A stretch of 64,000 nucleotides of DNA from positions 833,814-897,813 of the forward strand of contig OY762933.1 of the NCBI GenBank assembly GCA_963666765.1, given 5' to 3'. A model generated the notes under the pieces. The model had not been told where the DNA came from, did not search any database, and was given only the letters and a program-made list of their open reading frames with translations. Below, one piece after another: positions 1,909-52,121 of this stretch (position 1 is the first letter of the stretch; each line of letters begins with the position of its first letter). Origin of the DNA: Gammaproteobacteria bacterium (GTDB lineage Bacteria; Pseudomonadota; Gammaproteobacteria; Steroidobacterales; Foliamicaceae). The translations under genes and the position numbers were made by a program.

Positions 1909-3216
1909 CTACATTTCCAGCAAGCGTTTGGCGTGCCTCGCCGCGTACGGGGCGCAGCGATCAATGATGTCGTCGTCGACCCCACAGCTTTGCATCGTCT
2001 CTGGCAGCCGCTGCAATTGCGTGCCGAAGCCGCGCAACTCGATTCGCAATCGTTCTTTGTAATCGGGGAACAGCTTGATGACGCCGACCCAGTCCGGGTC
2101 CCCGGCCTGCTCAATGTCCACGTTCCAGCGACACACACGCGCAATGCCCTCGGGGTCCAGGTACATAGGCGCAAAATCGAACACCGGCGCGAGCACAACG
2201 CGGCCGTCGTCGTGCCGAAGCAACGCGGTATTGCGATCGTGGTTGTCCTTGTTGCCCATCACGACATTGACTACATCGCGTTTGACGTACTCGATCAGAT
2301 CCTCCGCAGGTTCAGTACAGTGCTCGGTAAGCGCGTCGCACAGTACTTCGTGCGGTACGCGCGCGCCATATTCGGCGATACCGGCTGCGGAATAGAGACT
2401 CTCCATGCCATAGCGCAACACTTCGCCATCGCGTACCTCGCGATCAAAGCGCGGTATGAACAGGCTGTCTTCCTCCCACTTGAGGTCGGCGTAGGTCCGC
2501 AGACCGAGTTGATCGGCGACGCGCATATAGGCAGCTTCGTTGCGTAGCACCTGGCGGTCGTCGGCACGATCGCCGCGAGGCCGCTTCACCAGCCAGTGCG
2601 ATTGCACTTGATTGTCAGCAAGCCGACCCTCGGCATGCCAGGCACCGTCATGATCCTGTGCGAGCAGCAACTTGGGCGCGACACCCTGAACATAGGATGC
2701 GCCGGCCGCGTAGATGCCGTGCTGAAAGGCGTACTCGACGAAGGTCTCCTTGCGCGCCAGGATATCGTCGCGCGCAAACCCGGGGTGGTCTTTCATTGAG
2801 ACGACATCACCCGCAGCCGTCGGAACCGGGGTATTGAAGTCTCGGGCTGCGACGGCTTCGGCCACACGAAGGTTGCCGGGCGGAAACGCTGTGCCGGCAA
2901 GCAGCAACGGCCAATCCGCCCCGGGACCCTCCTGAAGGCCGAGCTGCTCAAGCCACTGCTGGCGACCGTAGCCACCCGGTAAAATATCAAGCGCAAAAGC
3001 AGGCCAGCGCCCAAGACTATGCAGTTGGAAATCGACCGGGTAGCGGCAACTCAGGCCCGCAGCCGCAGCCGTGTCGGGACCGGCCGCATCGACCGCGTAT
3101 TCCGTATCGTATTCAAAACGGCAGGCACTCGTAATCCCCGCCGCGTCATCGGCGGGCGTCAGCGTCGCGGCCAGCTGCCAACGACCGCCACGGTAGATTT
3201 CAAAGGTCGCTTTCAT
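1909..3216 (-). CDS. hipA: HipA-family serine/threonine kinase (type II toxin)
   Basis: 435 aa. Catalytic-loop-like GNKDNHDRNTALL and Mg-binding-like LAPVFDFAPM motifs are characteristic of the HipA C-terminal domain. The length matches full-length HipA. Confidence 0.8.
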   Translation of the reverse strand: MKATFEIYRGGRWQLAATLTPADDAAGITSACRFEYDTEYAVDAAGPDTAAAAGLSCRYPVDFQLHSLGRWPAFALDILPGGYGRQQWLEQLGLQEGPGADWPLLLAGTAFPPGNLRVAEAVAARDFNTPVPTAAGDVVSMKDHPGFARDDILARKETFVEYAFQHGIYAAGASYVQGVAPKLLLAQDHDGAWHAEGRLADNQVQSHWLVKRPRGDRADDRQVLRNEAAYMRVADQLGLRTYADLKWEEDSLFIPRFDREVRDGEVLRYGMESLYSAAGIAEYGARVPHEVLCDALTEHCTEPAEDLIEYVKRDVVNVVMGNKDNHDRNTALLRHDDGRVVLAPVFDFAPMYLDPEGIARVCRWNVDIEQAGDPDWVGVIKLFPDYKERLRIELRGFGTQLQRLPETMQSCGVDDDIIDRCAPYAARHAKRLLEM

Positions 3217-3235
3217 TCTAGGAAAAGCTTAACAG

Positions 3236-3291
3236 TTCACTATAGGGAATCATAAACCCTATTATTTCACTAAATCAAATCACTATAGTGA
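3236..3291. promoter_or_regulatory. putative operator array upstream of hipA (TCACTA half-sites; perfect palindrome TCACTATAGTGA)
   Basis: AT-rich leader. TTCACTATAGGGAA at 3236-3249, TCACTA at 3267-3272, perfect 12-bp palindrome TCACTATAGTGA at 3280-3291. Confidence 0.55.
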
Positions 3292-5217: not shown

Positions 5218-5685
5218 ATGAGCACAACCGAAGTGGGCGCGCCGGCGCCCGAGTTCGAATCCGCCAGCACCAACGGCGGCCGGCAGACGCTGAGCGATCT
5301 CAAGGGCAGCAAGCTGGTGCTTTACTTCTATCCCAAGGACAACACGTCCGGATGCACGCTGGAAGGCCAGAATTTCCGGGACCTGCACGACGAATTCACC
5401 GCCGCCAACGCCGTCATACTGGGCGTGTCGCGCGAGTCCATTCGCTCGCACGACAACTTTCGCGGCAAGCACGATTTCCCCTTCCACCTGCTGTCGGACC
5501 CGGAGGAAACGCTTTGCAACGCCTATGACGTGATCAAGGAAAAAAGCATGTACGGGCGCAAGTACATGGGTATCGAACGCAGCACCTTCCTGATCGACGA
5601 AAATGGCGTGCTGCGGCGCGAGTGGCGCAAGGTAAAGGTGAAGGGGCACGTCGAAGAAGTGCTGGAGGCCGTTCGCTCGTTGTGA
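5218..5685 (+). CDS. bcp: thioredoxin-dependent thiol peroxidase (Bcp/PrxQ)
   Basis: YFYPKDNTSGCTLEG peroxidatic-Cys motif, 155 aa. Confidence 0.9.
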   Translation: MSTTEVGAPAPEFESASTNGGRQTLSDLKGSKLVLYFYPKDNTSGCTLEGQNFRDLHDEFTAANAVILGVSRESIRSHDNFRGKHDFPFHLLSDPEETLCNAYDVIKEKSMYGRKYMGIERSTFLIDENGVLRREWRKVKVKGHVEEVLEAVRSL

Positions 5686-5717
5686 ACGCCGCCCCGCCAG
5701 CGCAGGGGACACCATTC

Positions 5718-7238: not shown

Positions 7239-8561
7239 ATGGCGAATCGACTACAGGAATGGTGGACCTTGCAGGCCGAGGAGGAGCAGCAAAGCGCCGA
7301 CAACCCGCTGACGCCGCTCAGCGACGCGCAGCGGCGCAACACGCTGCCACTGCTGACGCTCGCCTTCGGATGGGGTTTTCTGGTGACCGGCCTGCTGACC
7401 GGCGGCGCCCTGGGCAAGGGCATGACGTTCTGGCCCGACGCCGTTCAGGCTTCGTTCTACGGCAACCTGGCCAACTTCGCGATCGGCGCCGTGGTCGGCT
7501 ATATGGGTTACAAGACCGCCTGCAACAGCGGCCTCCTGTATCGGCTGGTCTACGGACGCTTCGGCGCCTACATACCTGTGCTCTTTATAGCCCTGTTGAC
7601 CATCGGCTGGCAGGGCATCGTGGTGGGCGCCTTCGGCTTCGCCTGGGCGCAGGACTTCGACAGCACGGCGTTTTATGTCGTTGCGCTGCTCGCCGGCCTG
7701 CTGTTCACCGCAACGACCTATTTCGGAGTCAGGGCGCTGGAGTGGGTCAGCGTGCCTTCGGTGGTGATTCTGGTGGCGGTGGGGCTGTATTCCATCGACC
7801 TGAACATGGGCCAGGCCGGCGGCTGGGACGCCTTCCTGGCGCTCTCGGCGGACAAGGCCGCAAATGCGGAATCGCCCCTGAGCGTGCTCAACGGAGTCAA
7901 CGTCGTCATCGGTTCCTGGATCGTCGGGGCGGTGGTGATGGCCGAATACACCCGCTTCGCCAAGCGCGCCTGGGTGGCCATCGCGATACCGTTCATCGTC
8001 CTGATCATCGCGCAGTGGTTCCTGCAGATCGTCGGCGCCCTCGGCGGCGTCGTTTACGGCGGCGACGGCGATTTCACTTCCTACCTGCGCGAGCAGGCGG
8101 GGCTGATCGCATGGCTGGGCGTCATCGGAATGAGCGTCGCGCTTTGGACCACCGGCGACGCGAACCTGTACCTCCCGGTCATCCAGACCTCAAGCATCAT
8201 GCGCCGGCCACGGCGGGTCATGACCGTGATCTGCGGCCTGCTGGGAACCCTTCTGGGCCTCGGGATCTATCAGCAATTCCTGTTCTGGATCGGAGCGCTG
8301 GCGATCTGGGTGCCGCCCCTGATCGGGCCGGTCATCGCGCACTACTATTTCGTGGCCCGCGGCAGGATGGACGCCGGCGAAGGCGCCCGTTTACCGGTCG
8401 TGAACTGGGCAGCGCTGCTTGCCTACCCGCTGGGGCTGTTGAGCTATTACTACGCGCCCGAATGGCTGGTGCCGGCGCTGTCCGGCCTCGCAGGCTCGAT
8501 GGTCGCGTACCTGATCCTGTACCACCTGGTCCCGCCGCTGCGCGGCGTCGCTAAAGCCTGA
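7239..8561 (+). CDS. NCS1-type (cytosine/purine-like) permease
   Basis: 440 aa with about 12 hydrophobic segments. The N-terminal pattern resembles CodB-like permeases. ATG preceded by AGAGGGGGA. Substrate not inferable. Confidence 0.55.
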   Translation: MANRLQEWWTLQAEEEQQSADNPLTPLSDAQRRNTLPLLTLAFGWGFLVTGLLTGGALGKGMTFWPDAVQASFYGNLANFAIGAVVGYMGYKTACNSGLLYRLVYGRFGAYIPVLFIALLTIGWQGIVVGAFGFAWAQDFDSTAFYVVALLAGLLFTATTYFGVRALEWVSVPSVVILVAVGLYSIDLNMGQAGGWDAFLALSADKAANAESPLSVLNGVNVVIGSWIVGAVVMAEYTRFAKRAWVAIAIPFIVLIIAQWFLQIVGALGGVVYGGDGDFTSYLREQAGLIAWLGVIGMSVALWTTGDANLYLPVIQTSSIMRRPRRVMTVICGLLGTLLGLGIYQQFLFWIGALAIWVPPLIGPVIAHYYFVARGRMDAGEGARLPVVNWAALLAYPLGLLSYYYAPEWLVPALSGLAGSMVAYLILYHLVPPLRGVAKA

Positions 8562-8635: not shown

Positions 8636-9652
8636 CTACGCCGCCTCCAGCTCCGGGCGGTAATCGCCGGTTCGGGCGAGGCCGTTGAGCCGGGCGCGCT
8701 CGCCGAACGCGCGCTGGGCATCGACCAGCTGGTCCGCCCGGCCCTGCCAGGCCGCCAGGGCCGGCGCCTGTAGCGCGCGCCCATAGGAGAACGACACCTC
8801 CCAGGGGTGAGGTCCCCGCGCGTTCATTGCGCTCAGATGCGCGGTCGCATCTTCCGCCGACTGGCCCCCGGAAAGGAAGGCGATTCCCGACACGGCGGCA
8901 GGCACATGCGCCTTCAGCGTCCTCAGGGTGGCCTCCGCCACCTCTTCCACTCCCGCCTGCGCCGGACATTCGCTGCCGGACACCACCATGTTGGGCTTGA
9001 GCACGATGCCTTCCAGCTCCACGCGGTGGCGCTCCAGCTGGTCGAAGACTTCGTCGAGCGCCGCGCCGGTTACCTGCTCGCAACGGGAAATGGGATGCGG
9101 CCCGTCCATCAGCACCTCCGGCTCCACGATAGGCACAAGGCCGGCCTCCTGGCATAGCGCCGCATAGCGCGCCAGGGCATGGGCATTGGCGTGCACGCAG
9201 CAGTCGCTGGGCGCGCCCTCGCCGATTGCGATCACCGCCCGCCACTTGGCGAAGCGGGCGCCAAGGCCGCGATATTCCGCCAGCCGTTTGCGCAGCCCGT
9301 CAAGCCCTTCCGTCACCTTTTCGCCCGGGCAGCCTGCCAGGGGCTTGGCGCCCTTGTCCACCTTGATTCCCGGGATCATGCCGCGACCGGCCAAGTATTG
9401 CGGGATCGGTTCGCCGTCCGGCATCGATTGCCTTAGGGTTTCGTCGAACAGGATCACGCCGCCGATGTACTGCTCCGCGGAAGGTGCGGAAAACAGCATG
9501 GAGCGGTAGTCGCGGCGCAGCGGCTCGGTCGATTGCACACCGATGCCGGCAAAGCGCTTGCCGATCGTGGGAGTGCTCTCGTCGGCCGCCAGAATACCCT
9601 TGCCGGGCGCTACCATGGCTTGTGCCGTTTCGCTCAAGTTCGCGTTCGTCAT
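8636..9652 (-). CDS. fba: class I fructose-bisphosphate aldolase
   Basis: MTNANLSETAQAMVAPGKGILAADESTPTIGKRF... is the typical class I FBA N-terminus. Start at internal ATG 9652 gives 338 aa. Confidence 0.88.
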   Translation of the reverse strand: MTNANLSETAQAMVAPGKGILAADESTPTIGKRFAGIGVQSTEPLRRDYRSMLFSAPSAEQYIGGVILFDETLRQSMPDGEPIPQYLAGRGMIPGIKVDKGAKPLAGCPGEKVTEGLDGLRKRLAEYRGLGARFAKWRAVIAIGEGAPSDCCVHANAHALARYAALCQEAGLVPIVEPEVLMDGPHPISRCEQVTGAALDEVFDQLERHRVELEGIVLKPNMVVSGSECPAQAGVEEVAEATLRTLKAHVPAAVSGIAFLSGGQSAEDATAHLSAMNARGPHPWEVSFSYGRALQAPALAAWQGRADQLVDAQRAFGERARLNGLARTGDYRPELEAA

Positions 9653-9797
9653 CCGCCGATTTCTCCCCTTACCATCGTCTCTGGCGTGTAGTGTATTCAT
9701 ACCCTTGCCCATCCGCCACCTCCTTTCCCCGTAGGCGATAATCCGGGTTTCCGGGAGTCCTCCACAACACCTGATTTCTGCAGCCGGAACAGTAACC

Positions 9798-11036
9798 ATG
9801 AGCATTACCGTATTTGACAATTGCCGTATATTCAACGGCCACGGACCCGAGTACATCGAAGACCATCGAGTGGTGGTTGCCGAGGGCCGGATACAGGCGC
9901 TGGAGCCGATAAGAAGCAAGCCGCCGCAAGACGCCGATATCGTCGATTGCGGCGGGCGGGTGCTGATGCCGGGGCTGATCGACTGCCATTTCCATGCCTA
10001 CGGGGTGAGCTTCAGCTTCTACGAGCTCGACCGCATGCCGCGCGAGCTGCTGGCGCAGCACGGGGCCAAGACCATGCGTGACACCCTGCATCGCGGCTTC
10101 ACCACGATTCGGGACGCGGCCGGCGCCGACATCGGCCTGTGGATGGCGCTGGAACAGGGACTGATCGAAGGGCCGCGCCTGTTCTATCCGGGCCGGGCGC
10201 TCTCGCAAACGGGCGGCCATGGCGACATGCGCCCCGGCGACCAGATCGAGGCCTCCGCCTGCGCCTGCGGCTACATGGGGAGCCTCACCGTCACCGCCGA
10301 CGGCCCGGACGAAGTGCGCAAGGCCGTTCGCGAGGAACTGCGCAAGGGCGCCCACCAGATCAAGATCTTCATATCAGGCGGCGTGGTCTCGCCCACCGAT
10401 CCGCTGTGGATGCCGCAGTTTTCCGATGAAGAGGTGCGCGCGGCCGTCGAGGAAGCGGCGAGCCGGCGCACCTACGTGATGGCGCACTGCCATACCGACG
10501 ACGGGGCCCGCCGTTGCGTGGAACTGGGCGTTCGCACCATCGAGCACGGCTCGGAGATTCTCGACGACACCGCAAAGGCCATCGTCAAGGCGGGAGCGTA
10601 CGTGGTCCCGACCCTGTCCGTAATGCACGTGATCAAGGACTACTCCGGGCAGCTTGGCCTGCCGTCAAGCAGCCACGGCAAGATTCTGCGGGTCCACGAG
10701 ACCATGCTCGCCGCGATGGAAACCTGCGCGCGCCACGGGGTCAAGCTGGGCCTGGGGTCGGACCTCCTGGGCCACGAATACATGAAGCTGCAAGGCAGGG
10801 AGTTCGCCTATCGCGGCGAGGTCCACCCACCCCTGGAAGTGCTGCGTTCGGCCACTTCCGTCAATGCCGAGATCCTGCGCGAGGAAGGCAATCTCGGCTG
10901 CATCGCTCCGAGCGCGCATGCCGACCTGCTGGTGCTGGAGGACGACCCGATGAAGGACCTGAGCCTGTTCGGTGATGCGGCCAACATGCCCATCATCATG
11001 AAGGCGGGCCGGTTCATCCGCCGCGCTCCGCTCTGA
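9798..11036 (+). CDS. amidohydrolase-family metal-dependent hydrolase
   Basis: PGLIDCHFHAY (HxH metal motif), KIFISGG and AHCH motifs of the amidohydrolase_1 superfamily. Substrate unknown. Confidence 0.75.
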   Translation: MSITVFDNCRIFNGHGPEYIEDHRVVVAEGRIQALEPIRSKPPQDADIVDCGGRVLMPGLIDCHFHAYGVSFSFYELDRMPRELLAQHGAKTMRDTLHRGFTTIRDAAGADIGLWMALEQGLIEGPRLFYPGRALSQTGGHGDMRPGDQIEASACACGYMGSLTVTADGPDEVRKAVREELRKGAHQIKIFISGGVVSPTDPLWMPQFSDEEVRAAVEEAASRRTYVMAHCHTDDGARRCVELGVRTIEHGSEILDDTAKAIVKAGAYVVPTLSVMHVIKDYSGQLGLPSSSHGKILRVHETMLAAMETCARHGVKLGLGSDLLGHEYMKLQGREFAYRGEVHPPLEVLRSATSVNAEILREEGNLGCIAPSAHADLLVLEDDPMKDLSLFGDAANMPIIMKAGRFIRRAPL

Positions 11037-11256
11037 TCCAAAACGGAAGTTCAGTCTCGCGGCTTGGATTTTGACAACGTGCAGCTCCGCCTCAGCATCT
11101 CCCTTCTGCGCGCTTCGGCATCGTCGGCCACGGCGATTCCAGGAAAGTGGCTTTCGGTTTGCATACGACAGCGCCTCGTAGCCGCACCCTGCGGGACTGA
11201 CTTCTATAAAATAGAGGCATGGACAGTCTGGGGCGGTTTTCCTGATCGGATTGAAG

Positions 11257-12657
11257 ATGCGGAGTAATAGGCGAAGCGCCGGACGCCGCAACGGCCTGCT
11301 TTTGCTATTGACGTTGTCGGCTCTATGCCTGCAAGGGGCGGATGCCCAGGAGCCGGTTCGCGCTTACCTGATGACGAGCACGGCAGCAAGTCCTTTAGGG
11401 CCTGTGGTGGAACTGCATATCATCAACACGTCCGATTTCGATTTGCGATTTACCGGGACGTTGTATGACGCTCAGGGCATGCAACTAGGCGAGGCGGGCA
11501 AAGCCTTGAGCGAATTGCCCATAAATGCAAATGCCCGCTTGATTCTTACATCCAGGGAACTGGAGCAACGCTTCATGATTGGCGCCTGGGTTCAGCCGGC
11601 AATGCTGGAGATCATGGCCGATGTTGACGGTGCGCCCTTTGTGGCGATGGTGAAGCTGCGCAGCAGGCCGGGCGCATCGATGAGCAACGTCAACTGCGTT
11701 ACCGAAAACTCGGTGCATAACATCGCAGGCTTCAATCAGCCGGATCAAACATTCGTTCGCTTTATCAATACGGGCCCCGAGGCGATCTCCGACGTGCGCG
11801 GCACACTGCGTGACGCCAACGGCAACCTCGTTGGGCTGGCCGATCGCGTGTTGTTTGACTCACTGGGAGCAAAGGTTCACACGTGGATCAGCGGACAGGA
11901 GCTGGCCACGCTGGTTGGCGGAGCGTGGGACGGGCAGGCTAGTTTGTACGTGTCCCGTCATTTCGGATTGAAATTGATGAACATGAATCTGTCGGCCAGC
12001 GGAACGTTCGACAATTTTTCCTGTCACGAGCAGGCGTTCGATCAGAATCGTTTTGCGTCAAGCGCCAGCTATACGGTTACATTCACCGCTCGGTGGACCG
12101 ATAGAGATCACGGCTTTGTGCCCGCCTCAGCCCACTTCACCACGCTGGTGGGCGCGGCAACGAACAAGCGTGCGAATCTGTGGGCGCCAGGAGAACTGGC
12201 GAGCCTGGGCCTGGAGAATGTGGCGGAGTTGGGTAGTACCGGGCAGTTCCTCAACGAGATTGACGCTGCCGTGGCGAGCATGACCGCGGCAGCAGCGGTG
12301 ACGGCCGGCGGCACCGGCAGCACGGGCACGAGTTCTTTCGATTTGAGTCTGAACCGGGACATGCCGCTGTTCACCTTCGCCAGCATGGTGGCGCCAAGCC
12401 CGGACTGGTTTGTCGGCTTGAGCGCATTCTCGCTGCTCGACCACCAGGGCGGCTGGATCAAGGACACGGGGCACATGAATCTCGCGGTTTGGGACGCAGG
12501 AACGGAAACCGGCAACCAGTTCAGCCTCAACGGCACGGCAACCAATCCGCCCCAGTCCATTGAGCGGCTGACCGCGACAGTCGGCGACGTGGAAATCGTC
12601 AACGGCGTCGTAAACGGCGCGTACCTGGCCAGCATTCGCTTACAGCGCAATCCCTGA
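11257..12657 (+). CDS. secreted protein with C-terminal spondin_N-like domain
   Basis: Signal peptide (LSALCLQGADA/QE). The C-terminal ~200 aa (YTVTFTARWT...AHFTTLVGA...PSPDWFVGL...WDAGTE) match the bacterial spondin_N pattern. The N-terminal ~260 aa are unassigned. ATG 11257 preferred over TTG 11251. Confidence 0.6.
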   Translation: MRSNRRSAGRRNGLLLLLTLSALCLQGADAQEPVRAYLMTSTAASPLGPVVELHIINTSDFDLRFTGTLYDAQGMQLGEAGKALSELPINANARLILTSRELEQRFMIGAWVQPAMLEIMADVDGAPFVAMVKLRSRPGASMSNVNCVTENSVHNIAGFNQPDQTFVRFINTGPEAISDVRGTLRDANGNLVGLADRVLFDSLGAKVHTWISGQELATLVGGAWDGQASLYVSRHFGLKLMNMNLSASGTFDNFSCHEQAFDQNRFASSASYTVTFTARWTDRDHGFVPASAHFTTLVGAATNKRANLWAPGELASLGLENVAELGSTGQFLNEIDAAVASMTAAAAVTAGGTGSTGTSSFDLSLNRDMPLFTFASMVAPSPDWFVGLSAFSLLDHQGGWIKDTGHMNLAVWDAGTETGNQFSLNGTATNPPQSIERLTATVGDVEIVNGVVNGAYLASIRLQRNP

Positions 12658-33819: not shown

Positions 33820-34443
33820 ATGCGGAAAATATCAAGAACATTAGCCTGGCTTGTCGTTACCGCAGTGCTGGCCGCAGTTCTTGGCCTGTTATTCGGGGCC
33901 AATGTCGAAAAGGCACCGGAATCATCCGCTGTGATGTCAGGCGAGTCTCCGGATCCCGCGCAAACCACCCGGACTGATCAAGCCGCAACCGGAATCGCAA
34001 CCCCTGGACGGGCCTGGAACACCGTCGATCCCGATCAGGTTGAGCGCCTGCCGCCCTACAAGGAAACAGTCCCGGGCAGGCGGCTGGTTCGTATTGCGGA
34101 TTCGATACAGAACTGGAAGGAGGGCGACGAGGTGGCTTTTGAGGTGAAGCAACTGGGAAGGACTCTCGACGGCCTGGTGGAGCAGGTTAAGGTGGATGGT
34201 TGGGGGAACCGCTCCTACGTGGGCTCAATCAAGGAGCCCGGAACACGAAGCTACAGGTTTTTGGTTACAGTTGGAGCCCGAAACACCTTTGCCTATCTGG
34301 ACACGCCACAGGGAACCTTTGAACTTGTTGCGTTGAATGATCTGGGCTGGCTCATGCCCACGGCAGGCATGGATCAGCATGTGGATTTCAGCCGCCCTGA
34401 CATTATCGGACCGGAAGCGGAGCGTTACCGGCGACCGCGCTAA
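33820..34443 (+). CDS. hypothetical membrane-anchored/secreted protein upstream of the giant metzincin gene
   Basis: N-terminal hydrophobic anchor ([20 protein letters not shown]). No family recognised. Same strand as the giant gene and 20-80 nt upstream of it. Confidence 0.5.
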
Positions 34444-34504
34444 GGCCCGGGGCGCTACAGGCTCAGGTTTGAAAACTCACGCCATTACATCAGGCAGTCT
34501 TGCC

Positions 34505-37500
34505 TTGGGGGATCCCAAGCGATTGCCCCATTGGCCGATTCGCGCACTACTTGCAGTGGGGAGCGTAGCGCTTCTGGTATTGCCTTCGCCGCGAGCGCAG
34601 GCGCATCAGCATATCGAGCTGGTTTGCCCCTGTCGCGTAGAAACCTCCAATCTGACCTCCGTCACGCTGACTTTCGGCCTCCGCAATCTTAATGATGAAG
34701 AAGCCGACGGGCCCTTCCGGATCGTGCTGCTCGGGCGCAGCGCTGATTCGAAAGGCGAATGGAAAGAACTGGCTACCGCGCACGCCCCGGTGGTACAGGC
34801 AAGTTCAGAACATGCGGTTCAGGATTACACGGTGGCGCTCAAGGAACCCGAACGAAGCGGCAGATACGAATTCGGGTTGGAGGTGTACGAGGAAACGGAG
34901 GATTACTGGCCGGTTCAATCCATCTACTGGATTGCCGAAACAGTGGAACTGGAAACCGGCGGAAGCGCTTTTTCCTCCGCTTATTTCGAGGGCGCCCCCT
35001 CCATCCGGATCAGCGGTGAAAGCGCCACGCTGAATCTGCCCATCATCCGCAATGCCCCCAAGGGGCCGTCCGCCGGTCAAGTGAAGGCCGCGCTAATGGC
35101 CACTGAGCAAAAGGAGTTCGATTCGCCGCGCTCGACCATAGCGGAACGGACGATCGGCGAATTACCGCCGGGGGGCGAAATCCCGGCGGTAAGACTGACA
35201 TTTTCTTATTCGCCCGCCGCCGGAAGAAACTACCTGCACGCAGTGATACTGAACAGCGAGGGTGGCCTGCTTGCATATCAGACAATAGTCGTTCCGCCGG
35301 GGGGAAAGCTTCCGGAGCGAAGGTTCGCCACGTCCGACGCCGACATGCTCAAAGACACGGACGGCGACGGCGTAGGTGACGTCAACGAACGGCTTGAAGG
35401 CACCGATCCGAACGACGGCAACTCCACTCCCGGCGACTCCACAATTGACGTGCTGGCGCTTTACAGCCCCGGCCTGGCGGAACTGTACCGGGGCGACGCC
35501 GTCTCCCGCATCAGTCATCTGATGACGCTTACCGATGAAATATTCAGAAACAGCGGCTCAGGGATGCGCATCCGTCTGGTGGGTATCAGCGAAGCCGCGA
35601 TCGATGACACTGTGACCGACTCCACCGTGCCCGAAGGAGAGCTGCGCGAACTCACGGAACTGCACGGCGCGGACATGGCCGTGATGTTCCGGCCGTTTGT
35701 TGAAAACACGGGCCTGTGCGGATGGGCGCCTGCTATAGGAGGGTATCAGGACAACGGCATCATTAACGATTTCATTGACGCCCCCTTAGGCCATGTTTTC
35801 GGTGACTGCGGCGCGATCACCACGGCCCACGAGCTGGGACACCTCATGGGCCTTGGACATTCTCAAGCGCAGGGCGAGGTAGGCACTTTCCGATGGGCGC
35901 GGGGTCACGGCGTATGGGAGGAGTTCGTGACGGTAATGGCGTACAGCAGCGCCTACGGCCATCCCGAAGAGATCGGCTTGTTCTCCAGTCCGCAGCGGGA
36001 TTGCAACGGCTTCCCCTGCGGGATCGGCGCTGGAGCGGCGGACAGCGCGGATGCGGCGAGAACGCTCGGCGTCGTGCGGTTTCAACTGGAGGACATCAAC
36101 GAGCAGAAGCCGGATTCCGATAATGACGGATTCATTGATACCGTTGACGCATTTCCTGATGATCCGAACGAACTGCGGGACACCGACGGCGACGGCATCG
36201 GCGATAACGCCGACCCCGACGCCGATAACGACGGCGTGTTGGACGCCGTCGATTTCTATCCGCTGGACCCACGTGAATGGGCGGACACCGACGGCGACGG
36301 CGTGGGGGACAACGCGGATGCCTTCCCCGAGGACTGGCTGGAAACCAAAGACACCGACAGCGACGGGGCCGGCGACAATTCAGACCGTTTCCCGCTGGAT
36401 CCTTCGGAAACGGTGGACACCGACAACGACGGGGTCGGGAATAATGGCGATCCGTTTCCATTCGATTCGCGCGAATGGGCGGATACCGACGGCGACGGCA
36501 TCGGCGATAACGCCGACCCCGACGCCGACAACGACGGCGTTCCGGACACACAGGATGTGTATCCTCGCGATGCCACGCGGTCAGAATACTCCTCGTACAG
36601 GTTCATCGGCGAAGGTTTGCTGGGCGAGCCGAAGTTGTCGTCCGCTGGCGACCTCGACGGCGATGGCCGCTCCGAACTGCTTGTCGGAATGCCCTGGACA
36701 TGGAACGGCGGCAAGCGAGGAGGAGGCTGGCTGCTTGCGGCCGCGGACCTGCGCGCGGCGGACGAAGCTGATGGCGTAGCGGATCACATTATCGATCTGG
36801 ACCAGACCGGCCCCCTGCCCGGGTCGTGGAGGTTTTCCGCTGAATCGGCTGGAGACGAGGCCGGAAGCAGCGTCGCCAGGGCTGGCGACATCGATGGCGA
36901 CGGCGTCGCGGATCTGCTGATTGGAGCCCAGAATCACGGACCTGCGGAACAGCTCTGGTTCGCTGGCGCAGCGTATCTGATCTCGGCGGGAGACCTGACA
37001 GCGGCGGACGTAGAGGATGGCGAGGCGGATCGTGTTATCGAACTGAAGCATATCGCCCGGCAGCAGAACTCATGGAAATTCGTCGGGGGGACGGAACATA
37101 CCTACGCCGGCTTTCGCGTAGGTGGCCTGGGCGACTTTAATGGAGACAGCCGGGATGATCTCGTGATTGCCGCCCGTACCGAGGCCGGGACGATTTACGT
37201 AGTGTCCGGCCGTGAACTTGCCGCCGCAGACGAAGCCGACGGTACAGCGGACAGTCTCATTTCATTGTCCCGGATAGCCGAAAGGCCCGGGTCCTGGAAA
37301 CTGGTCGGCGCGCAGGAAGAGGATTACGCGGGCTATGTGGCCCCGGTGGATGATATCGACGGGCATGGCGGCAGGGGCTTGATAATGGCCTCCGGGCTCC
37401 ATTCGGGAGAATCAGGCAGAGGTATCGGAGCGGTCTATCTGGCGGCGGCCTCCGATCTCCCGGCGGTAGATCAGGCCGATGGCGCTGCGGATGGCGTAGT

Positions 37501-40500
37501 TGACCTTGGCCGGATATCCGAAGGACAACATTCCTGGATATTTCTGGGCGCAGTGAACGATCCCCTGCGGCACGCCGTTTCCCTTGGACCCGCAAATGTC
37601 GGCGATCCTCCGGACATGCTCTTGATGAGCGTCAACACGATCTTCTATCTCAAGGGCGCCAGCCTGGCCGAGGCGGACCAGGCTGATGGCGATTCAGATC
37701 ATGTCATTCGCCTCGATGTGGCCGATTCTCCGACCACGCCCCTGGCGAAAATCAACTCCTTCAACATATTTGGGTTTGCGTCTTTGGGAGACGTGGATGG
37801 TGACGGGATGTCCGATCTGTTTTTGCCCGGAATCCATGGGCATCTTATTGGCCGGCAGGAGTTAAGCGCCTTGAAACCTGGCGATGACGTCCGGATCGAA
37901 GACCTCCACGCGCGCGGAGAATCCTGGAAGCTTGTCCAGACCGGGGATTTCCATCACGTGCTTCCGGCGGGAGATGTGGATGGCGACGGGCGCACGGATG
38001 TTCTCGCAGCCACGCAGGACGAGTTCTATCTTCTGGCTTCTTCCGACCTCGTCCTTCTTGACAGCGCCAACGGGGCCCCGGACAGAACAATTGAAATGGC
38101 CCAGGTTGGCGGAGACGAAAACGGCGACGGAATCCCCAACATTGTCGATCAGGATGACGATGGCGATGGCTACCTGGACAGCGTGGACCGCTTCCCTTCC
38201 GATCCGGTCGACTGGATTGATTCGGATGGCGATGGCGTAGGCGACAACAGGGATTTGTTTCCGTCCGACCCTTTCGAGCACTCGGACACGGATGCCGATG
38301 GTCTGGGTAACAGCGAGGATCCGGATGACGATAATGACGGCATTATGGATTGGAACGACCCATTCCCCCGGGACACCGACGATGACGGAACGGAAAACGC
38401 ATATGACGAGGATGACGACGGCGACGGCGTGCCGGACAGGAACGATCACTTTCCGCTGGACCCCTCTGAATCGAGGGACACGGATGGCGACGGGACCGGT
38501 GACGCTGCGGACGGCGATGATGATAACGACGGCGTTGCCGACGAAGAGGACCACTTGCCGCTGGATCCCTCCGAATCGGTGGACACGGATGGAGACGGCG
38601 TCGGAGACAATAGCGACGCCTTTGCCGACAATCCTCAGGAGTCGTCGGACCATGATGGCGACGGCGTAGGCGATAACAGCGACAGGGATGATGATGGAGA
38701 TGGAGTGCCCGACCTGAGTGACGCCTTCCCCCTGAACTCCGCTGAGTCATCCGACAGCGACAGCGACGGTGTGGGCGATAACTCGGATGCATTTCCGCGT
38801 GATGGATCCGAGTGGGCGGACACCGACAACGACGGACTGGGCGATAACACCGATGATGATGATGACAACGACGGATATACGGATAATGCCGACGCGTTTC
38901 CGCTGCGCCCGAATCAAACACGGCTGTTTCATTACCGGCTGCAGGGAGAAAGACCGGGCTCGCGCGCCGGCGCAGCTGTTTACCCGGCGGGCGATAGCGA
39001 TGGCGACGGACTCGATGAAGCGTTGATCGGCGCACCGGCGGTTAGCTGGCCCGGCGGGATCATTTCCTTCGGCGCCGCGTACCTGGTCTCCGGCGCTGAC
39101 CTGGATGCCTCGGACCGTGCGGACGGTATCGCTGACGGCGCAATTGATCTTGGAAACGCGCCGGCGCAACCATCCTCATGGGCAGTAACCGGAAGCCTGG
39201 TCCGTGATCAGGTCGGGCGCTCCATCACGCGGCGGGGCGAAGGCGGCGGCCTATGGACCATCAGCGCGCATGGGCATGAGAATCACCGGGGATCGGTATT
39301 TCTGACCTCCTCCGAACGGATTGCGGATGCCGACAGGGAGGACGGGCAGGATGGGATTGCGCGAACCGACTATTTGCGGCATAAGTCCGGCGTCTGGGAA
39401 TTGATCGGCGAAAATGAAGCAACAGATACCGGTTACTCCGTATCTTCCGCGGGGGACGTGCATGCGGATGGTCACAATGACGTGCTGGTGGGCGCGCCTC
39501 TGTATGGCGACCGGGGCGAAGGCGCCGCCTACCTGATTTCAGGCGCTGATCTGGAAGGACTGGACGCCGCGGATGGCCAGAGCGACGGGCGTATCGAGCT
39601 GGCCCGCGCCGCCGCGCAGACCGGATCATGGAAATTGGTGGGCAGTGACGGGCAGGCGGGCGAACATGTGGCGTTTGCCGGCGACATCGACGGCGATGGC
39701 CGCTCCGATCTGATCATCGGCGCACCCTTCGGTTCGGAAGGAGAAAGGCTGCGGGGCATTGTGTATCTCGTGGCCGCGGCGGATTTGAGCGCCGCGGACG
39801 GAGCCGACGGCCAGACGGACGGCGTCATTAATCTGGATAACGTTGCAGAACAGGCCGAATCATGGAAGTTCCTTGGCGAGGAAATGCTCAATTTCGCGGG
39901 GAGCGCCGCCATGGCGAAAAACATGGACGGAGACGGAAAGCCGGAATTGGTGATTACGGCGCCAGGACACGGCCAGGGCAGCGGAGCAATCTACATTCTT
40001 CCGATGGACCATCTGGCCGCGGCGGACGCCGCGGATGGAACCAGCGACCATGTGATTCTCCTGAATGAATTCCCGGATTCTCTGGAAGGCGCATGGAAAC
40101 TGACAGGCGAAGGCAACGCCTTCTGGAGCTTTGGCGTGGGCAGTGGGGCGGGAACCTCCCTGTCCGGTCTGGACCTCAACCGCGATGGCCGGACGGAACT
40201 GCTGATAGGCGCCCCGAACTACATGGAACGTGGCATCTGGTGCGCGGAGGCGGGGCGGCAGCAGCAGCCCGGCGCCGTGTATCTCATCTCAAGTGATGAC
40301 CTGGCGCGCGCGGACGCCGCGGATGGTGAAACGGACAGGGTGGTCAGGCTGGCGAAAACGATCGGAGCGGGCAATTCGTGGAAATTCGTGGGCGAAGCCA
40401 CTGACCGTATGGGATCGAGCATTTCCGGCGCGGGCGACCTGAACGAGGACGGAACGGTGGATCTCATTTTTGGAGCGGCGGATCAGTTCCGGCGCGCAAG

Positions 40501-47753: not shown

Positions 47754-47876
47754 ATCGAAATCAAAGGCAAGCGGATATCGAGCTTTTGTAACTTAAGTTC
47801 TATTTATTCTATTGAATAAAATTAGTGCATGATGTAAATTTACTTCCCAATCTAATCATGCATAAGGATACTGTTC

Positions 47877-49088
47877 ATGATTGAACTTGCTAATCCATTC
47901 AAACCAGGTGCCGGTCACCAGCCCCCATACTTGGCAGGCCGTCAAGCCGAAAAGAGGGAATTCTTACGGCTACTGAAGCAGGACACCATTCTTGAGAACA
48001 TGGTACTCACAGGCCTTCGAGGCGTTGGCAAGACCGTTTTGTTGGAAACTCTCAAACCACTTGCCTCCGAGAAAAACTGGATGTGGGTAGGGGCTGACCT
48101 ATCCGAATCTGCCAGCCTTACGGAAGCGAGCATTGCAACACGACTTTGCACGGACCTGTCGCCAATTACCTCCACCGTCATCGTTTCCAAAAAGCATGTC
48201 TATCCCATCGGATTTGCGGGCAGGGAGGAAACACTGGAGATGACTCTCAACTACGCCGCGCTTCTTGGTATCTATTCACACACGCCAGGGCTGGCTCTCG
48301 ATAAGCTCAAGATGGTGCTCGAAAGTGCGTGGGATGTGCTTTCAAGCGCAGGCGGTGTCCGGGGAATCATTTTTGCCTATGACGAAGCGCAAAACCTGGC
48401 TGACCATTCAGGAAAGGAAGAATTCCCTCTTTCCCTGTTGCTTGACGCCTTTCAATCTCTTCAACGTAAGGGCCTCCCACTAATGTTGGTCTTGACGGGA
48501 TTGCCAACCCTATTTCCGAGGCTTGTTGACGCACGTACATTTTGCGAGCGCATGTTTCGCGTTGTATTCCTGGAGAGCCTTTCTGATGCACATAGCAGGG
48601 AAGCAATCCAAAGACCTTTTGAAAGCATGCCCAATGTACCGACGCTTGACGAGTCGTCAGTAGACACAATCATTGGCATGTCCGGAGGCTACCCCTACTT
48701 TATCCAGTTCATTTGCAGGGAAGTCTATGATGTCTTTGTGCAATGTTGGCGTCGGGAAGAACCAGCTTCGGTTCCAATACATGAGATCCAACAAAAGTTG
48801 GATACAGACTTTTTCTCCGCGAGATGGGCACGAACGACAGACCGACAACGAGACTTACTTTTCGTGATCTCGCACTTGCCGGATTGTGATCGTGAATTTA
48901 CTGTGCAAGAGATTGTTGAAAAATCAAAAGAAGTGCCGGGAAAGTCCTTTAGCGGAAGTCACGCAAATCAGATGCTCTCCGCACTCGCCCGCCAAGGTCT
49001 CATCTTCAAGAACAGACATGGCAAGTACTCATTTGCCGTTCCGTTGCTTGGTGATTACATTCGCCGCAACTTCGAGGTCGCCCAATAG
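47877..49088 (+). CDS. AAA+/STAND-like ATPase (archaeal-ATPase/ORC-Cdc6-like type) with probable C-terminal winged helix
   Basis: ANPFKPGAGHQPPYLAGRQAEKREF N-terminal motif, Walker A GLRGVGKT, Walker B IIFAYDEAQ, C-terminal FTVQEIVEKS...LARQGLIFKNRHGKYSFAVPLL wHTH-like segment. AAGGA Shine-Dalgarno. Low GC. Confidence 0.7.
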   Translation: MIELANPFKPGAGHQPPYLAGRQAEKREFLRLLKQDTILENMVLTGLRGVGKTVLLETLKPLASEKNWMWVGADLSESASLTEASIATRLCTDLSPITSTVIVSKKHVYPIGFAGREETLEMTLNYAALLGIYSHTPGLALDKLKMVLESAWDVLSSAGGVRGIIFAYDEAQNLADHSGKEEFPLSLLLDAFQSLQRKGLPLMLVLTGLPTLFPRLVDARTFCERMFRVVFLESLSDAHSREAIQRPFESMPNVPTLDESSVDTIIGMSGGYPYFIQFICREVYDVFVQCWRREEPASVPIHEIQQKLDTDFFSARWARTTDRQRDLLFVISHLPDCDREFTVQEIVEKSKEVPGKSFSGSHANQMLSALARQGLIFKNRHGKYSFAVPLLGDYIRRNFEVAQ

Positions 49089-49203
49089 TCGAGGCGCGCG
49101 CCAATACCTGGATTGTGCAAGGCCACTCTCTACAGACAATTTACCAGCCCTGATCGTAAGGTGCAGGGGTGCTGCTCCAAGGTCGTTACAGGCCGGGGCG
49201 TTT

Positions 49204-50160
49204 CTATGAGCTGTTGTCGCGGAGACTCACTCGGAAGCGCGAGGGATCCATGCCAACGCTACGGATCACGAATGCCGTTCTGCCTAACATCCCGACTGCA
49301 TTGGCGTGTCTTGAGATATAGAAAGAACCAACCTGGGCCAGATTGACAAACGCTTTGCCCGAAGGATGGACCGGCCTCGTATTCACTGCGCAACTGCGGC
49401 CACCCGGGTTTCCTATCGGACACATATGCTCTTTCAAATGGCCGTGGCGAGCGAGCCACTGGACAGCCTCTTTTAGTACCTGCCACCAGAACCGTACTTC
49501 AACTGTTGTGTTGTCCGGTAAACAAACGCGGGAAACATGATGACCGACCTCGTTCTTAAGCTTTGTGATTGATGCCGGCAATGGCATATATCCATCCTCC
49601 GGTGGCGCCGGAGATGGCGGCAAAACAGTGTCACCCTCGTCAGGACCCTCGCGAAGCCCATTCAACATTGGAAGGGGCTGCAAGCTCCCGTCAAGAACGG
49701 CGGGACGCCAAATGGCCAGCGCATTCCGGCAGGCTTCGGCAATCGAGTTGCCAAGTTCGAAAGAAACAATCCGCTTATCTGTCAGCGGCACGGGTTTGTG
49801 CGTTTCATACACATCCCAGCGTTGGCCGTCCGTAACCGCAAAATACAACACGCCTTTTTGCAAAGTGTATTGAATACCCTGCTGGGTAGCCCTCTCAAGG
49901 CGGTCGCCTAGTTTCTTGGCCTCCACCATGATGACTGGCTTGCCGGCGCTGTTAAGCAGCGCATAGTCGGCGCGCCCTCCAGTAGCTGGATATTCCGGCG
50001 CTACGACAGCGGGATCCTCCGTATCCCAGTCCAGCGCCCGGAGTAATGGATCAATCAGAGCATAGCGGGTAAGAGTTTCGCTCTTGCTCAACGAATCCCG
50101 GTGCTCATCGATTCGGCGTGACAGCGTTTCGATGAGTTCGAGAAAATCGCGAAGCGCCAC
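49204..50160 (-). CDS. PD-(D/E)xK nuclease-fold protein (type I restriction HsdR N-terminal-like domain) with an unassigned C-terminal domain
   Basis: N-terminal TLTRYALIDPLLRALDW...GGRADYALL...PVIMVEAKK (D65, E80, K82 by ORF numbering) matches the HsdR_N-type core. About 170 C-terminal aa are unrecognised. GTG start uncertain. Low GC. Confidence 0.6.
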   Translation of the reverse strand: MALRDFLELIETLSRRIDEHRDSLSKSETLTRYALIDPLLRALDWDTEDPAVVAPEYPATGGRADYALLNSAGKPVIMVEAKKLGDRLERATQQGIQYTLQKGVLYFAVTDGQRWDVYETHKPVPLTDKRIVSFELGNSIAEACRNALAIWRPAVLDGSLQPLPMLNGLREGPDEGDTVLPPSPAPPEDGYMPLPASITKLKNEVGHHVSRVCLPDNTTVEVRFWWQVLKEAVQWLARHGHLKEHMCPIGNPGGRSCAVNTRPVHPSGKAFVNLAQVGSFYISRHANAVGMLGRTAFVIRSVGMDPSRFRVSLRDNSS

Positions 50161-50192
50161 TTTAGATTGCTTGGACTGGAGGGACGGCGAGA

Positions 50193-52121
50193 TCAGTGCT
50201 GTTCGGCAGGCTTGCCGATATCGGCGGCGGGCGGTCGCTTGCGTTTCTTGCCTGCGGCCTTTTTCTTCTTCTTGCCTGTCTTGCCCCAGCCCGGCGGAGG
50301 ACTGGGCTCCTGCCCGCCCATGATCTCCCCGATCTGGAACTGTTCGATCGTCTCGTACTTGAGCAGTGCGTCCGCCATGGCGTGCAGGCGCTCCATGTTG
50401 TCGGTAAGGATCTTCCTGGCCCGCTCGTAGGCGGTATCAATGATCTCCCGCACTTCCTTGTCGATCGCATGTACCGTGGCGTCCGACACCTGCTTGTGCT
50501 GGGTGACGGTTCTGCCGAGGAATACCTCGCCGTCCTCCTCGCTGTAGGTCAGCGGACCGAGACGGTTGGACAGCCCCCACTTGGTGACCATGTTGCGCGC
50601 GATCGCGGTGGCTCGTTCGATATCGTTGGCCGCCCCGGTGGTCACCGCGTCCTTGCCGAATATCAGCTCCTCGGCCACGCGGCCGCCGAACAGGCTGGTG
50701 ATCTGGCTGATCAGCCGCTGCTTCGAGTGGCTGTGGCGATCGACTTCCGGCAGGAACATGGTCACGCCCAGGGCGCGGCCGCGCGGGATGATGGTGACCT
50801 TGTGCACCGGATCGTGCTCGGGCACGTTCAGGCCCACGATGGCATGCCCGGATTCGTGGTAGGCGGTGAGCTTGCGCTCCTCGGGGCTCATCACCATGGA
50901 CTTGCGCTCGGTGCCCATCAGGATCTTGTCCTTGGCCTTCTCGAACTCCTCCATGGCCACCGACTTGTTCCCGACCCTTCCGGCCAGCAGCGCCGCCTCG
51001 TTTACCAGGTTGGCGAGGTCTGCGCCGGAGAAACCGGGCGTTCCGCGGGCCAGGGTGCTGGCCGACACGCTGTCGTGCACAGGCACCTTGCGCATGTGCA
51101 CCTTGAGAATCAGCTCGCGCCCACGAATGTCCGGAAGCGGCACCACCACCTGGCGGTCGAAACGGCCCGGGCGCAGCAGCGCCGGATCGAGCACGTCCGG
51201 CCGGTTGGTGGCGGCGATGACAATGATGCCTTCGCTGCCGGCGAACCCGTCCATCTCCACCAGGAGCTGGTTCAGGGTCTGCTCTCGCTCGTCGTGGCCG
51301 CCGCCCAGCCCGGCGCCGCGATGGCGTCCGACCGCGTCGATCTCATCGATGAAGATGATGCAGGGCGCCTGCTTCTTGGCCTGCTCGAACATGTCGCGCA
51401 CGCGTGATGCGCCCACGCCCACGAACATCTCCACGAAATCCGACCCGGAGATGGTGAAGAACGGGGCCTCCGCCTCGCCGGCAATGGCGCGTGCCAGAAG
51501 GGTCTTGCCGGTCCCCGGCGAGCCGACCATCAGCACGCCCTTGGGGATCTTTCCGCCCAGCCGCTGGAACCTGGAAGGGTCCTTCAGGAACTCGACGACC
51601 TCGGCAACTTCCTCCTTGGCTTCCTCTACGCCGGCCACATCCTCGAAAGTGACCGGAGTCTGGTCCGGATTCAGCAGGCGGGCGCGGCTGCGGCCAAAGG
51701 ACATGGCCCCGCCGCGGCCGCCAACGCCCCCCTGCATCTGGCGCATGAAGTACAGCCAGATGCCGATCAGCAGCAGGAACGGCAACAGGTTGAGCAGGAA
51801 GGAAAGCCAGGCGCTTTCCGACTTCGGCTTGGGCGAATGCACCTCCGCGCCGCTCACGGTGAGCTCGCGGACCAGTTCGGAATTGTCGGTGGACGGAGGA
51901 CTGTAGGTTACGAATTCTCCGCCGCCGACCTGTTCGCCGCGAATTGTGCGGTCTTCCAGGATCTCGACTTCCTTGATCCCGCCGTTGCCGACCAGTTCAA
52001 GGAACCGGGAAAAGTTGATCTCCTCGGCCGGGGTCCCCCGGTTGTTCAGGGGCTGCAGCAACATCATGAGGGCCAGCGCTATGACCAGCCACAGGAAGAG
52101 ATTCTTGGTGAACTTGTTCAT
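50193..52121 (-). CDS. ftsH: ATP-dependent zinc metalloprotease FtsH
   Basis: Walker A GSPGTGKT, Walker [21 protein letters not shown] zinc motif, 642 aa. Confidence 0.97.

Follow-up and report, generated by a model that had tools for sequence, protein, structure and literature searches.

Two neighboring genes located between ftsH and a decarboxylase gene in a Candidatus (Ca.) Foliamicus-like gammaproteobacterial lineage are probably functionally independent accessory genes in an old, locally variable slot. The genes were examined in a 64-kb window, i.e., the whole stretch of 64,000 nucleotides (nt) of contig OY762933.1 (assembly GCA_963666765.1) that was analyzed here. The interval of interest, 47754-50192, contains two convergent open reading frames (ORFs): gene 1 (47877-49088, plus strand, 403 residues), which encodes a predicted AAA+ ATPase, and gene 2 (49204-50160, minus strand, 318 residues), which encodes a predicted PD-(D/E)xK nuclease. 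An initial annotation, made from the sequence alone, had viewed the pair as a candidate anti-phage module on a recently acquired islet. The layout it described, with two convergent ORFs and a 115-nt gap between the decarboxylase stop (47753) and the ftsH stop (50193), is present as claimed. The module and the recent insertion did not survive comparison with other genomes.

Independence of the two genes and history of the slot

Gene 1 and gene 2 are probably functionally independent and do not form a module. Co-occurrence was counted within +/-10 kb of each gene, in 82 loci containing gene 2 (the best 80 of ~260 stretches with relatives, plus two separately taken loci) and in 100 metagenomic and viral loci containing gene 1. 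Gene 1 was found in only two of the 82 gene 2 loci, L001 and L004, both of which are gammaproteobacterial relatives with the synteny of the window, and gene 2 was found in none of the 100 gene 1 loci. ORF clustering revealed no conserved partner gene in either set. The neighbors of gene 2 belong to paralogous metabolic families, each present in at most 23 of the 82 loci, and those of gene 1 are heterogeneous, including glycosyltransferases, a few TIR, restriction-modification (R-M) and PD-T4-6 genes, IS1 transposases, and phage and housekeeping genes.

These counts bear directly on the idea that the ATPase and the nuclease constitute one two-gene anti-phage system, with the NTPase as sensor or motor and the nuclease as effector. 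NTPase and nuclease pairs are a common defense architecture, both genes are AT-rich and of accessory type, and they are adjacent in the window and in L001, L004 and L191. This adjacency, however, is limited to one lineage of shared synteny, with 80 of the 82 and all 100 loci lacking the partner; a near relative, L189, retains gene 2 but with a PIN-domain gene where gene 1 would be; and the genes are convergent, gene 1 having its own conserved promoter and operator. The PADLOC search proposed in the initial annotation matched neither protein significantly to any model of a known or candidate system. Neighborhood co-occurrence, which the same annotation had named in advance as the refuting test, is absent within +/-10 kb, and because this test is negative the two-gene system is refuted within that range; overall, we consider such a system highly improbable. 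The initial annotation had also cautioned that the genes might be unrelated orphans, and this is the reading favored by the neighborhood counts.

The history of the locus was reconstructed by comparing the window with seven related loci (L001, L003, L004, L005, L189, L190 and L191). The conserved gene order is greA, rlmE, (prx), ftsH, gene 2, the slot, the decarboxylase gene, a small ORF, (an O-methyltransferase gene) and a metallo-beta-lactamase hydrolase gene. Gene 2 comes directly after ftsH in seven of these eight loci, including loci with only 88-90% FtsH identity; the exception is L191, in which methylase/HNH fragments and an IS1595-family transposase are located upstream of gene 2.

The slot itself has variable content. 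It is occupied by gene 1 in the window, L001, L004 and L191. In L189 (GCA_001752985.1), which comes from nearly the same organism as the window (FtsH is 99.2% and peroxiredoxin 100% identical), the slot (8958-9743) contains a PIN-domain gene preceded by a small ORF; by eye, the small ORF is AbrB/VapB-like, and the two look like a VapBC-type pair. The L190 slot (9345-11434) contains a DUF222/HNH gene and a 107-residue remnant of gene 1. The slots of L003 (10970-11162) and L005 (10961-11821) contain no gene and only remnants of the gene 1 operator (see below), and each of them holds the sole TAAATTTA of its 21-kb locus. Identity of gene 1 between genomes (81-88%) tracks that of the decarboxylase (84-88%), which fits vertical inheritance. 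The operator remnants in empty slots in turn indicate that gene 1 is ancestral at this site, with several later losses or replacements, one of them very recent. This small cargo hotspot between gene 2 and the decarboxylase gene is an old variable slot in this lineage.

The comparison with sister genomes that the initial annotation had recommended therefore shows gene 2 in all loci, variable slot content, and low G+C kept in relatives. Its proposal of a recent insertion at ftsH is contradicted by the gene order conserved in seven of the eight loci, by gene 1 remnants in relatives that lack gene 1, and by low G+C throughout the relatives. The absence of folP-glmM after ftsH, previously regarded as the mark of an insertion or rearrangement point, is an arrangement found lineage-wide.

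The drop in base composition noted in the initial annotation is real. G+C content is 0.518 in 47754-50192 and 0.627 and 0.654 in the 10-kb flanks, and no other stretch of this length in the 64 kb has a G+C as low (mean 0.633, standard deviation 0.027, i.e., about -4.3 standard deviations). Earlier hand counts of G+C per 60 bases (33, 27 and 39) were essentially right, a recount giving 33, 26 and 40. At third codon positions, G+C (GC3) is 0.53 in gene 1 and 0.59 in gene 2, and 0.71-0.86 in neighboring genes. The relatives have the same feature: GC3 of gene 2 is ~0.58-0.59 in all five genomes measured (the window, L001, L003, L004 and L005), and that of gene 1 is 0.53-0.59. In addition, across hosts whose flanks range in G+C from 0.39 to 0.74, gene 1 has a lower G+C than its flanks in 57 of 59 loci (median difference -0.077); the same holds for gene 2 in 66 of 68 loci (median -0.066). 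Low G+C thus characterizes both families, and it marks a class of accessory genes and not recency. Since GC3 stays low in the relatives and the AT shift of both families is seen in nearly every host, low G+C was rejected as evidence of recent acquisition; AT-richness is common among mobile or accessory genes. We also observed that GC3 of gene 2 is unameliorated in the five genomes despite synteny and distances that are roughly congruent with the flanks (GC3 of the flanks is 0.76-0.86).

Gene 1 and its upstream palindromes

The assignment of gene 1 as an AAA+ protein with a winged helix, made in the initial annotation, holds in Pfam and fold searches. The protein matches Pfam AAA_16 (36.3 bits, cutoff 32.6) and, over residues 4-397, phrog_6841 (E = 2.8e-67), a family whose function is unannotated. 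Weaker matches, below the respective cutoffs, were obtained with ATPase_2 (PF01637; 19.7 bits, cutoff 33.2) and nSTAND6 (E = 0.044). An AlphaFold2 model (predicted local distance difference test score, pLDDT, of 76.6) contains a P-loop nucleotide-binding domain (NBD), a helical lid and a C-terminal winged helix; these three parts cover all 403 residues, with no sensor repeat or effector domain. We therefore describe the product of 47877-49088 as an AAA+/STAND-like NTPase. In a Foldseek search of PDB, the best matches were Orc1/Cdc6 structures (2v1u, 2qby and 1fnn; E = 3e-09) and SSO1545 (2fna). Other fold matches included eukaryotic ORC/Cdc6 proteins and plant NLR NOD modules, with those of NRC3, NRC4 and Roq1 having TM-scores up to 0.51 against the gene 1 model.

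Additional searches were less informative. No NCBIfam orc1/cdc6 model matched gene 1; the best PADLOC match (E = 0.0088) covered the P-loop only, with no STAND/Avs model among the matches; and a fold search of BFVD gave generic AAA+ matches only. Neither gene 1 nor gene 2 received an informative assignment in PADLOC, NCBIfam and PDB sequence searches.

The Walker A (GLRGVGKT, residues 46-53, nt 48012-48035) and Walker B (IIFAYDEAQ, residues 164-172, nt 48366-48392) motifs, both on the plus strand, are invariant across homologues. Also invariant is the lid motif GGYPYF (G271, Y272, P273, Y274, F275), which we interpret as a GxP-type motif of the helical domain. Mean column identity is 74% in an alignment spanning phyla, indicating strong purifying selection. 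The protein is a predicted ATPase.

The protein resembles two groups of known ATPases. It shares with archaeal Orc1/Cdc6 and the SSO1545-type 'archaeal ATPase' the AAA+ domain, the lid, the C-terminal winged helix, the size of ~400 residues, and repeated DNA sites that adjoin the gene; it differs from them in having no significant sequence match, no replicon context, and sites that overlap its own promoter. With STAND NTPases (the NOD of NLR/NB-ARC proteins, and Avs and related antiviral ATPases), it shares the core of NBD, helical domain and winged helix and the GxP-type motif, but it consists of the NOD core alone, without sensor repeats or effector.

Upstream of gene 1 is a 123-nt AT-rich control region (47754-47876, plus strand, G+C 0.31), which we read as a promoter with operators. 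A sigma-70-like promoter can be recognized by eye at 47812-47840 on the plus strand, with TTGAAT (47812-47817), a 17-nt spacer and TAAATT (47835-47840), followed by AAGGA and then ATG; transcription is predicted to begin near 47847. A promoter and terminator consensus scan of the interval gave nothing above shuffled expectation, and this promoter was below the threshold of the scan because only 8 of its 12 positions match the consensus. Two operator-like sites, 18 bp apart, overlap these elements. Site 1 (47816-47825) is ATAAAATTAG, with 2 mismatches to the palindrome CTAAATTTAG, and site 2 (47834-47843) is the perfect palindrome GTAAATTTAC, inside which TAAATT lies. The core of site 2, TAAATTTA, is located 35 nt before the ATG and is the single occurrence in the 64-kb window, compared with 0.03 expected.

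These sites are a nearly constant feature of the family. We surveyed the 200 nt upstream of gene 1 relatives in 85 distinct homologous loci, and exact TAAATTTA was present in 66 of them. Its density upstream of the gene is 5.6 per kb and in the flanks 0.012 per kb, a ~480-fold enrichment. At least one 10-mer within 2 mismatches of CTAAATTTAG was detected in 83 of the 85 loci, and at least two in 60. A spacing of 18 bp is dominant in the family (28 of 37 pairs), and in many homologous loci TTGAC abuts site 1 and TAAATT lies inside site 2, as in the window. With TAAATTTA cores few in the flanking DNA of the 85 loci (9 in ~765 kb) and, in the window, present at the promoter of gene 1 alone, there is no sign of a local regulon.

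Plasmid-borne homologues with 28-31% identity to gene 1 have other upstream inverted repeats (GTTTAT/ATAAAC; CAGTTTAC...TAAACTG). In the predicted recognition helix, residues S361, H362, N364 and Q365 are kept in the conserved subfamily and are different in the 28-31% homologues. This co-variation of the repeats and the predicted recognition helix supports binding of the sites by the gene 1 protein itself, presumably through its winged helix, and the overlap of the palindromes with the gene's own promoter points to autorepression. We infer that gene 1 represses itself via two 10-bp palindromes (consensus CTAAATTTAG, 18 bp apart) positioned over its promoter. A search of the literature on the palindrome, Cdc6-like anti-phage proteins or 'Foliamicus' found nothing relevant, and the near-universal operator of the gene 1 family is newly noticed here.

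Repeated sites next to an Orc1/Cdc6-like gene could also be read in another way, by analogy with archaea, in which orc1/cdc6 genes adjoin origin recognition boxes: gene 1 and the palindromes might be the initiator and origin, or a maintenance module, of a decayed integrated mobile element. Consistent with this idea are Orc1/Cdc6 as the top PDB fold match, the repeated palindromes in an AT-rich stretch directly upstream of gene 1, and the occurrence of the family in phage contigs. The gene, however, stands by itself, with no replication genes nearby and, in most loci, no helicase, primase, integrase or partition genes alongside. Moreover, the sites coincide with -35/-10-like elements, as expected of a repressor-controlled promoter, only distant homologues (28-31% identity) are plasmid-borne, and the orc1/cdc6 model of NCBIfam has no match. 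We regard an initiator-origin function as very unlikely and favor an autoregulated accessory gene.

More than 7,978 matches (8,000 candidates scored; clusters at 90% identity) make the gene 1 family very large, and its conservation is unusually high, the best matches being 66-92% identical to the query. Many metagenomes from soil, wetlands and symbionts contain relatives, as do prophages; in prophage contigs, gene 1 is situated just upstream of the terminase region. A divergent IS1-family transposase is present just upstream of gene 1 in 13 of the 100 loci, and some genomes have gene 1 in defense-island-like contexts. Gene 1 in the window and in L001 is bounded by no terminal inverted or direct repeats.

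Two other loci contain repeats around gene 1. In L111, perfect 17-nt inverted repeats (8449-8465 and 11626-11642) enclose the transposase and gene 1, a 3.2-kb segment that resembles a passenger-carrying insertion sequence (IS), and in L155 the inverted repeats enclose the transposase alone. In L187, from an 8.7-Mb genome, gene 1 is flanked by a 191-nt direct repeat (5500-5690 and 7285-7475; 83% identical) that corresponds to the 3' end of an amidohydrolase gene, which suggests that the cassette arrived together with a copy of the end of its target gene.

In these properties, gene 1 is similar to phage morons and autoregulated single-gene accessory cassettes, which likewise have their own promoter and operator and are AT-rich relative to the host; like morons, it is found upstream of the terminase in prophages and is gained and lost as a unit. 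It differs from morons in being far better conserved across phyla and in its long vertical inheritance in this lineage. We propose that gene 1 is a self-contained single-gene cassette encoding a minimal Orc1/Cdc6- and STAND-like NTPase that would sit on its own promoter via the winged helix, with ATP-dependent oligomerization or a change of state upon a cue as its likely working step. The cassette spreads horizontally; in this lineage, its inheritance has been vertical, with repeated losses. Its function most likely falls in the class of phage- or mobile-element-related conflict or exclusion factors and not in that of housekeeping proteins. This role is favored because of the patchy distribution and the prophage, IS and variable-slot contexts; caution is needed because the gene shows housekeeping-like conservation and is absent from defense catalogues.

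Gene 2, a predicted nuclease with a second folded domain

The HsdR_N-like PD-(D/E)xK assignment of gene 2 in the initial annotation is confirmed by Pfam, invariant residues and fold. The protein matches HSDR_N (PF04313) with 28.1 bits against a cutoff of 25.1, and the RADY...VIMVEAKK segment provides D65, E80 and K82 (minus-strand codons at nt 49966-49968, 49921-49923 and 49915-49917, respectively), which are invariant in 29 homologues. Its structural model (pLDDT 86.9) has three parts. The N-terminal nuclease domain (residues 1-160; 49681-50160, minus strand) matches in fold the nuclease domains of BpuSI, DrdV and HsdR (3h1t, 2w00). It is followed by a flexible proline-rich linker (residues 161-187; 49600-49680, minus strand), disordered at residues 164-187 (pLDDT <50), length-variable in the alignment and with a ratio of nonsynonymous to synonymous substitution rates (dN/dS) of ~1.1. 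The C-terminal part (residues 188-318; 49207-49599, minus strand) is an alpha/beta domain without a Pfam family. The initial annotation had noted this unrecognized part and recommended predicting its structure; the part indeed exists and is confidently folded (pLDDT 90-98), but comprises ~130 residues and not the claimed ~170.

The C-terminal domain had no match in Pfam, in a PDB sequence search or in a PDB fold search of the whole model. The best PADLOC match of gene 2 (E = 1.1e-05, over 59 residues of PDC-M54B) does not amount to a significant match to a system model. A profile of residues 188-318, however, identified 1,863 representative proteins (E <= 0.001), in which the domain is present in one to four tandem copies with proline-rich linkers between them; gene 2 has one copy. 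Ten of these proteins were scanned for partner domains: seven contain HSDR_N, one contains a superfamily 2 (SF2) helicase (ResIII + Helicase_C), and two have no informative partner, showing coiled-coil-type matches only or none. The simplest reading of a module tethered to nucleic-acid enzymes is that it recognizes the substrate, and from this architecture we suggest that the C-terminal domain of gene 2 recognizes the target nucleic acid. The PD-(D/E)xK catalytic domain, predicted to be an active nuclease, would then be tethered by the flexible linker to a domain that selects the target.

Comparison with restriction enzymes helps place gene 2. The N-terminal 160 residues are similar to type I HsdR and to type IIG enzymes (BpuSI, DrdV) in the PD-(D/E)xK fold and the D...ExK motif. 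Unlike these enzymes, gene 2 lacks an SF2 motor, a methyltransferase or specificity domain and HsdM/HsdS partners, and its C-terminal domain is unrelated. The earlier statement that this is not a type I R-M system is correct, as the 318-residue protein lacks a helicase domain and no methylase or specificity gene is nearby in the window. Solitary type IV endonucleases, such as Mrr, MspJI and PvuRts1I/AbaSI, consist of a nuclease and a separate DNA-reader domain. Gene 2 is like them in being a small single chain with a nuclease and a second folded domain and without a cognate methylase, whereas this second domain is not detectably like SRA, winged-helix or other known readers. Because gene 2 lacks a methylase partner, our best guess, by analogy, is a type IV-like, modification-dependent restriction nuclease.

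A methylase partner for gene 2 was not found consistently across the loci, and none is present near gene 2 in the window. An N6/N4 methylase-HNH gene, absent from the window, occurs near gene 2 in L001, L191 and 5 other loci. In L001, the gene encodes a short protein that joins an N6/N4 DNA methylase to an HNH nuclease and is inserted between carA and carB (2603-3274); in L191, the same type of gene is in two pieces directly upstream of gene 2 (1165-2371).

Gene 2 is rare: the ~260 stretches with relatives came from a search of 185,579 species genomes (one genome per species). Most of the hosts belong to Dehalococcoidia, other Chloroflexota, Latescibacterota, Binatia and Ca. Foliamicus-like Gammaproteobacteria, and they are represented almost only by metagenome-assembled genomes (MAGs). 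Several of the isolate names (SB06xx_bin, APA_bin, IRC2_bin, Langseth_MAG, Plut_) suggest MAGs from sponge or coral microbiomes, a putative host association. Within our lineage, gene 2 is 85% identical to its L189 counterpart, and the flanking proteins are 94-100% identical. For this pair, dN/dS of gene 2 is 0.36 (0.00-0.22 for the flanking genes), and dS is raised too. Pairwise distances of gene 2 are roughly congruent with those of flanking genes.

A point missed by the initial annotation is that gene 2 shares the orientation of ftsH and begins 32 nt past the ftsH stop. The spacer between this stop and the GTG start of gene 2 (50161-50192, minus strand, 32 nt) contains GGAGGG. Co-transcription of the two genes is possible, and expression of gene 2 is probably simultaneous with that of ftsH or follows it closely.

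Surrounding genes and significance of the locus

The borders of the locus are conserved genes. The left border of the variable slot is a pyridoxal phosphate-dependent decarboxylase gene (46332-47753, plus strand; Pfam Pyridoxal_deC, E = 2.9e-108), which is syntenic and 83-98% identical across the 7 related loci, and the conserved right border is ftsH (50193-52121, minus strand), 88-99% identical in relatives. Between gene 1 and gene 2 is the convergent spacer (49089-49203, 115 nt from stop codon to stop codon), in which a consensus scan revealed no convincing terminator. A scan of 30000-55000 with Rfam at gathering thresholds gave no match.

Two genes farther away in the window also deserve mention. 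A 393-residue ATPase with AAA_14 and DUF4143 domains is encoded at 42827-44008 on the plus strand, 3.9 kb from the interval, and matches the PADLOC single-gene candidate PDC-S01 (E = 9.8e-81); its orthologue in L189 was called as two ORFs (271 and 123 residues) and is possibly a pseudogene there. Between rpsP and this gene is an ORF of 2,751 residues (34337-42592, plus strand), whose domains, i.e., a reprolysin-like metalloprotease, thrombospondin type 3 repeats and many FG-GAP repeats, suggest a eukaryote-like surface protein. L189, with FtsH 99.2% identical, has no room for this ORF, as only ~270 nt separate the DUF4143 ORFs from the next gene.

Several observations weigh against two independent accessory genes with the roles proposed above. 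All eight related loci contain gene 2, and in Dehalococcoidia it has metabolic genes as neighbors; a domesticated nuclease of repair or recombination would fit this pattern too. The rate of evolution of gene 1 is as low as that of a housekeeping enzyme and PADLOC does not include the gene, which is unusual for a defense gene, and its neighbors are only mildly enriched in defense genes. Since the palindromes overlap consensus-like promoter elements, selection on the promoter could account for part of their conservation. No similarity between the C-terminal domain of gene 2 and known DNA-reader domains was detectable, and target recognition is read from its architecture. Finally, the co-occurrence figures are confined to +/-10 kb.

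Some of these points could be accommodated if both were domesticated cellular genes, gene 2 being a repair or recombination nuclease co-expressed with ftsH and gene 1 an ordinary ATP-dependent transcription factor. In agreement with this possibility, gene 2 is kept in all eight loci, in seven of them directly after ftsH, and is located among metabolic genes in other phyla, while gene 1 is under strong purifying selection (the 74% mean column identity noted above) and has a DNA-binding-type winged helix and a specific upstream site. On the other hand, even genomes with 99% identical FtsH differ in the presence of gene 1, which is also found in prophages and beside IS elements. In the window, its site is confined to its own promoter, and the flanks of the 85 loci have just 9 TAAATTTA in ~765 kb. 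Gene 2 is rare and scattered over unrelated phyla, and it evolves faster than its neighbors. We consider domestication of both genes unlikely, and two accessory genes in an old variable slot remain the reading that we judge probable.

A broader possibility, which we put forward tentatively and with appreciable doubt, is that the gene 1 family is an unrecognized, widespread single-gene system for conflict or mobile-element maintenance that acts directly on DNA, and that the C-terminal domain of gene 2 is a new nucleic-acid reader. Here, a minimal Orc/STAND NTPase without a separate effector would read CTAAATTTAG across hosts with its winged helix, and its ATP-driven oligomerization might, for example, block replication or transcription of an invader. 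The reader domain would serve nucleases and helicases.

The locus is a case in which adjacency, low G+C and a plausible pairing of ATPase and nuclease wrongly suggest a defense operon, and in which neighborhood statistics and sister genomes reveal independent genes and an old slot. If neither gene has a role in conflict, they would be ordinary accessory cargo. The gene 1 family is among the larger uncharacterized families of bacterial and phage ATPases, and its operator offers a testable handle on function. The C-terminal domain of gene 2, unannotated and well folded, could be a new DNA-recognition domain.

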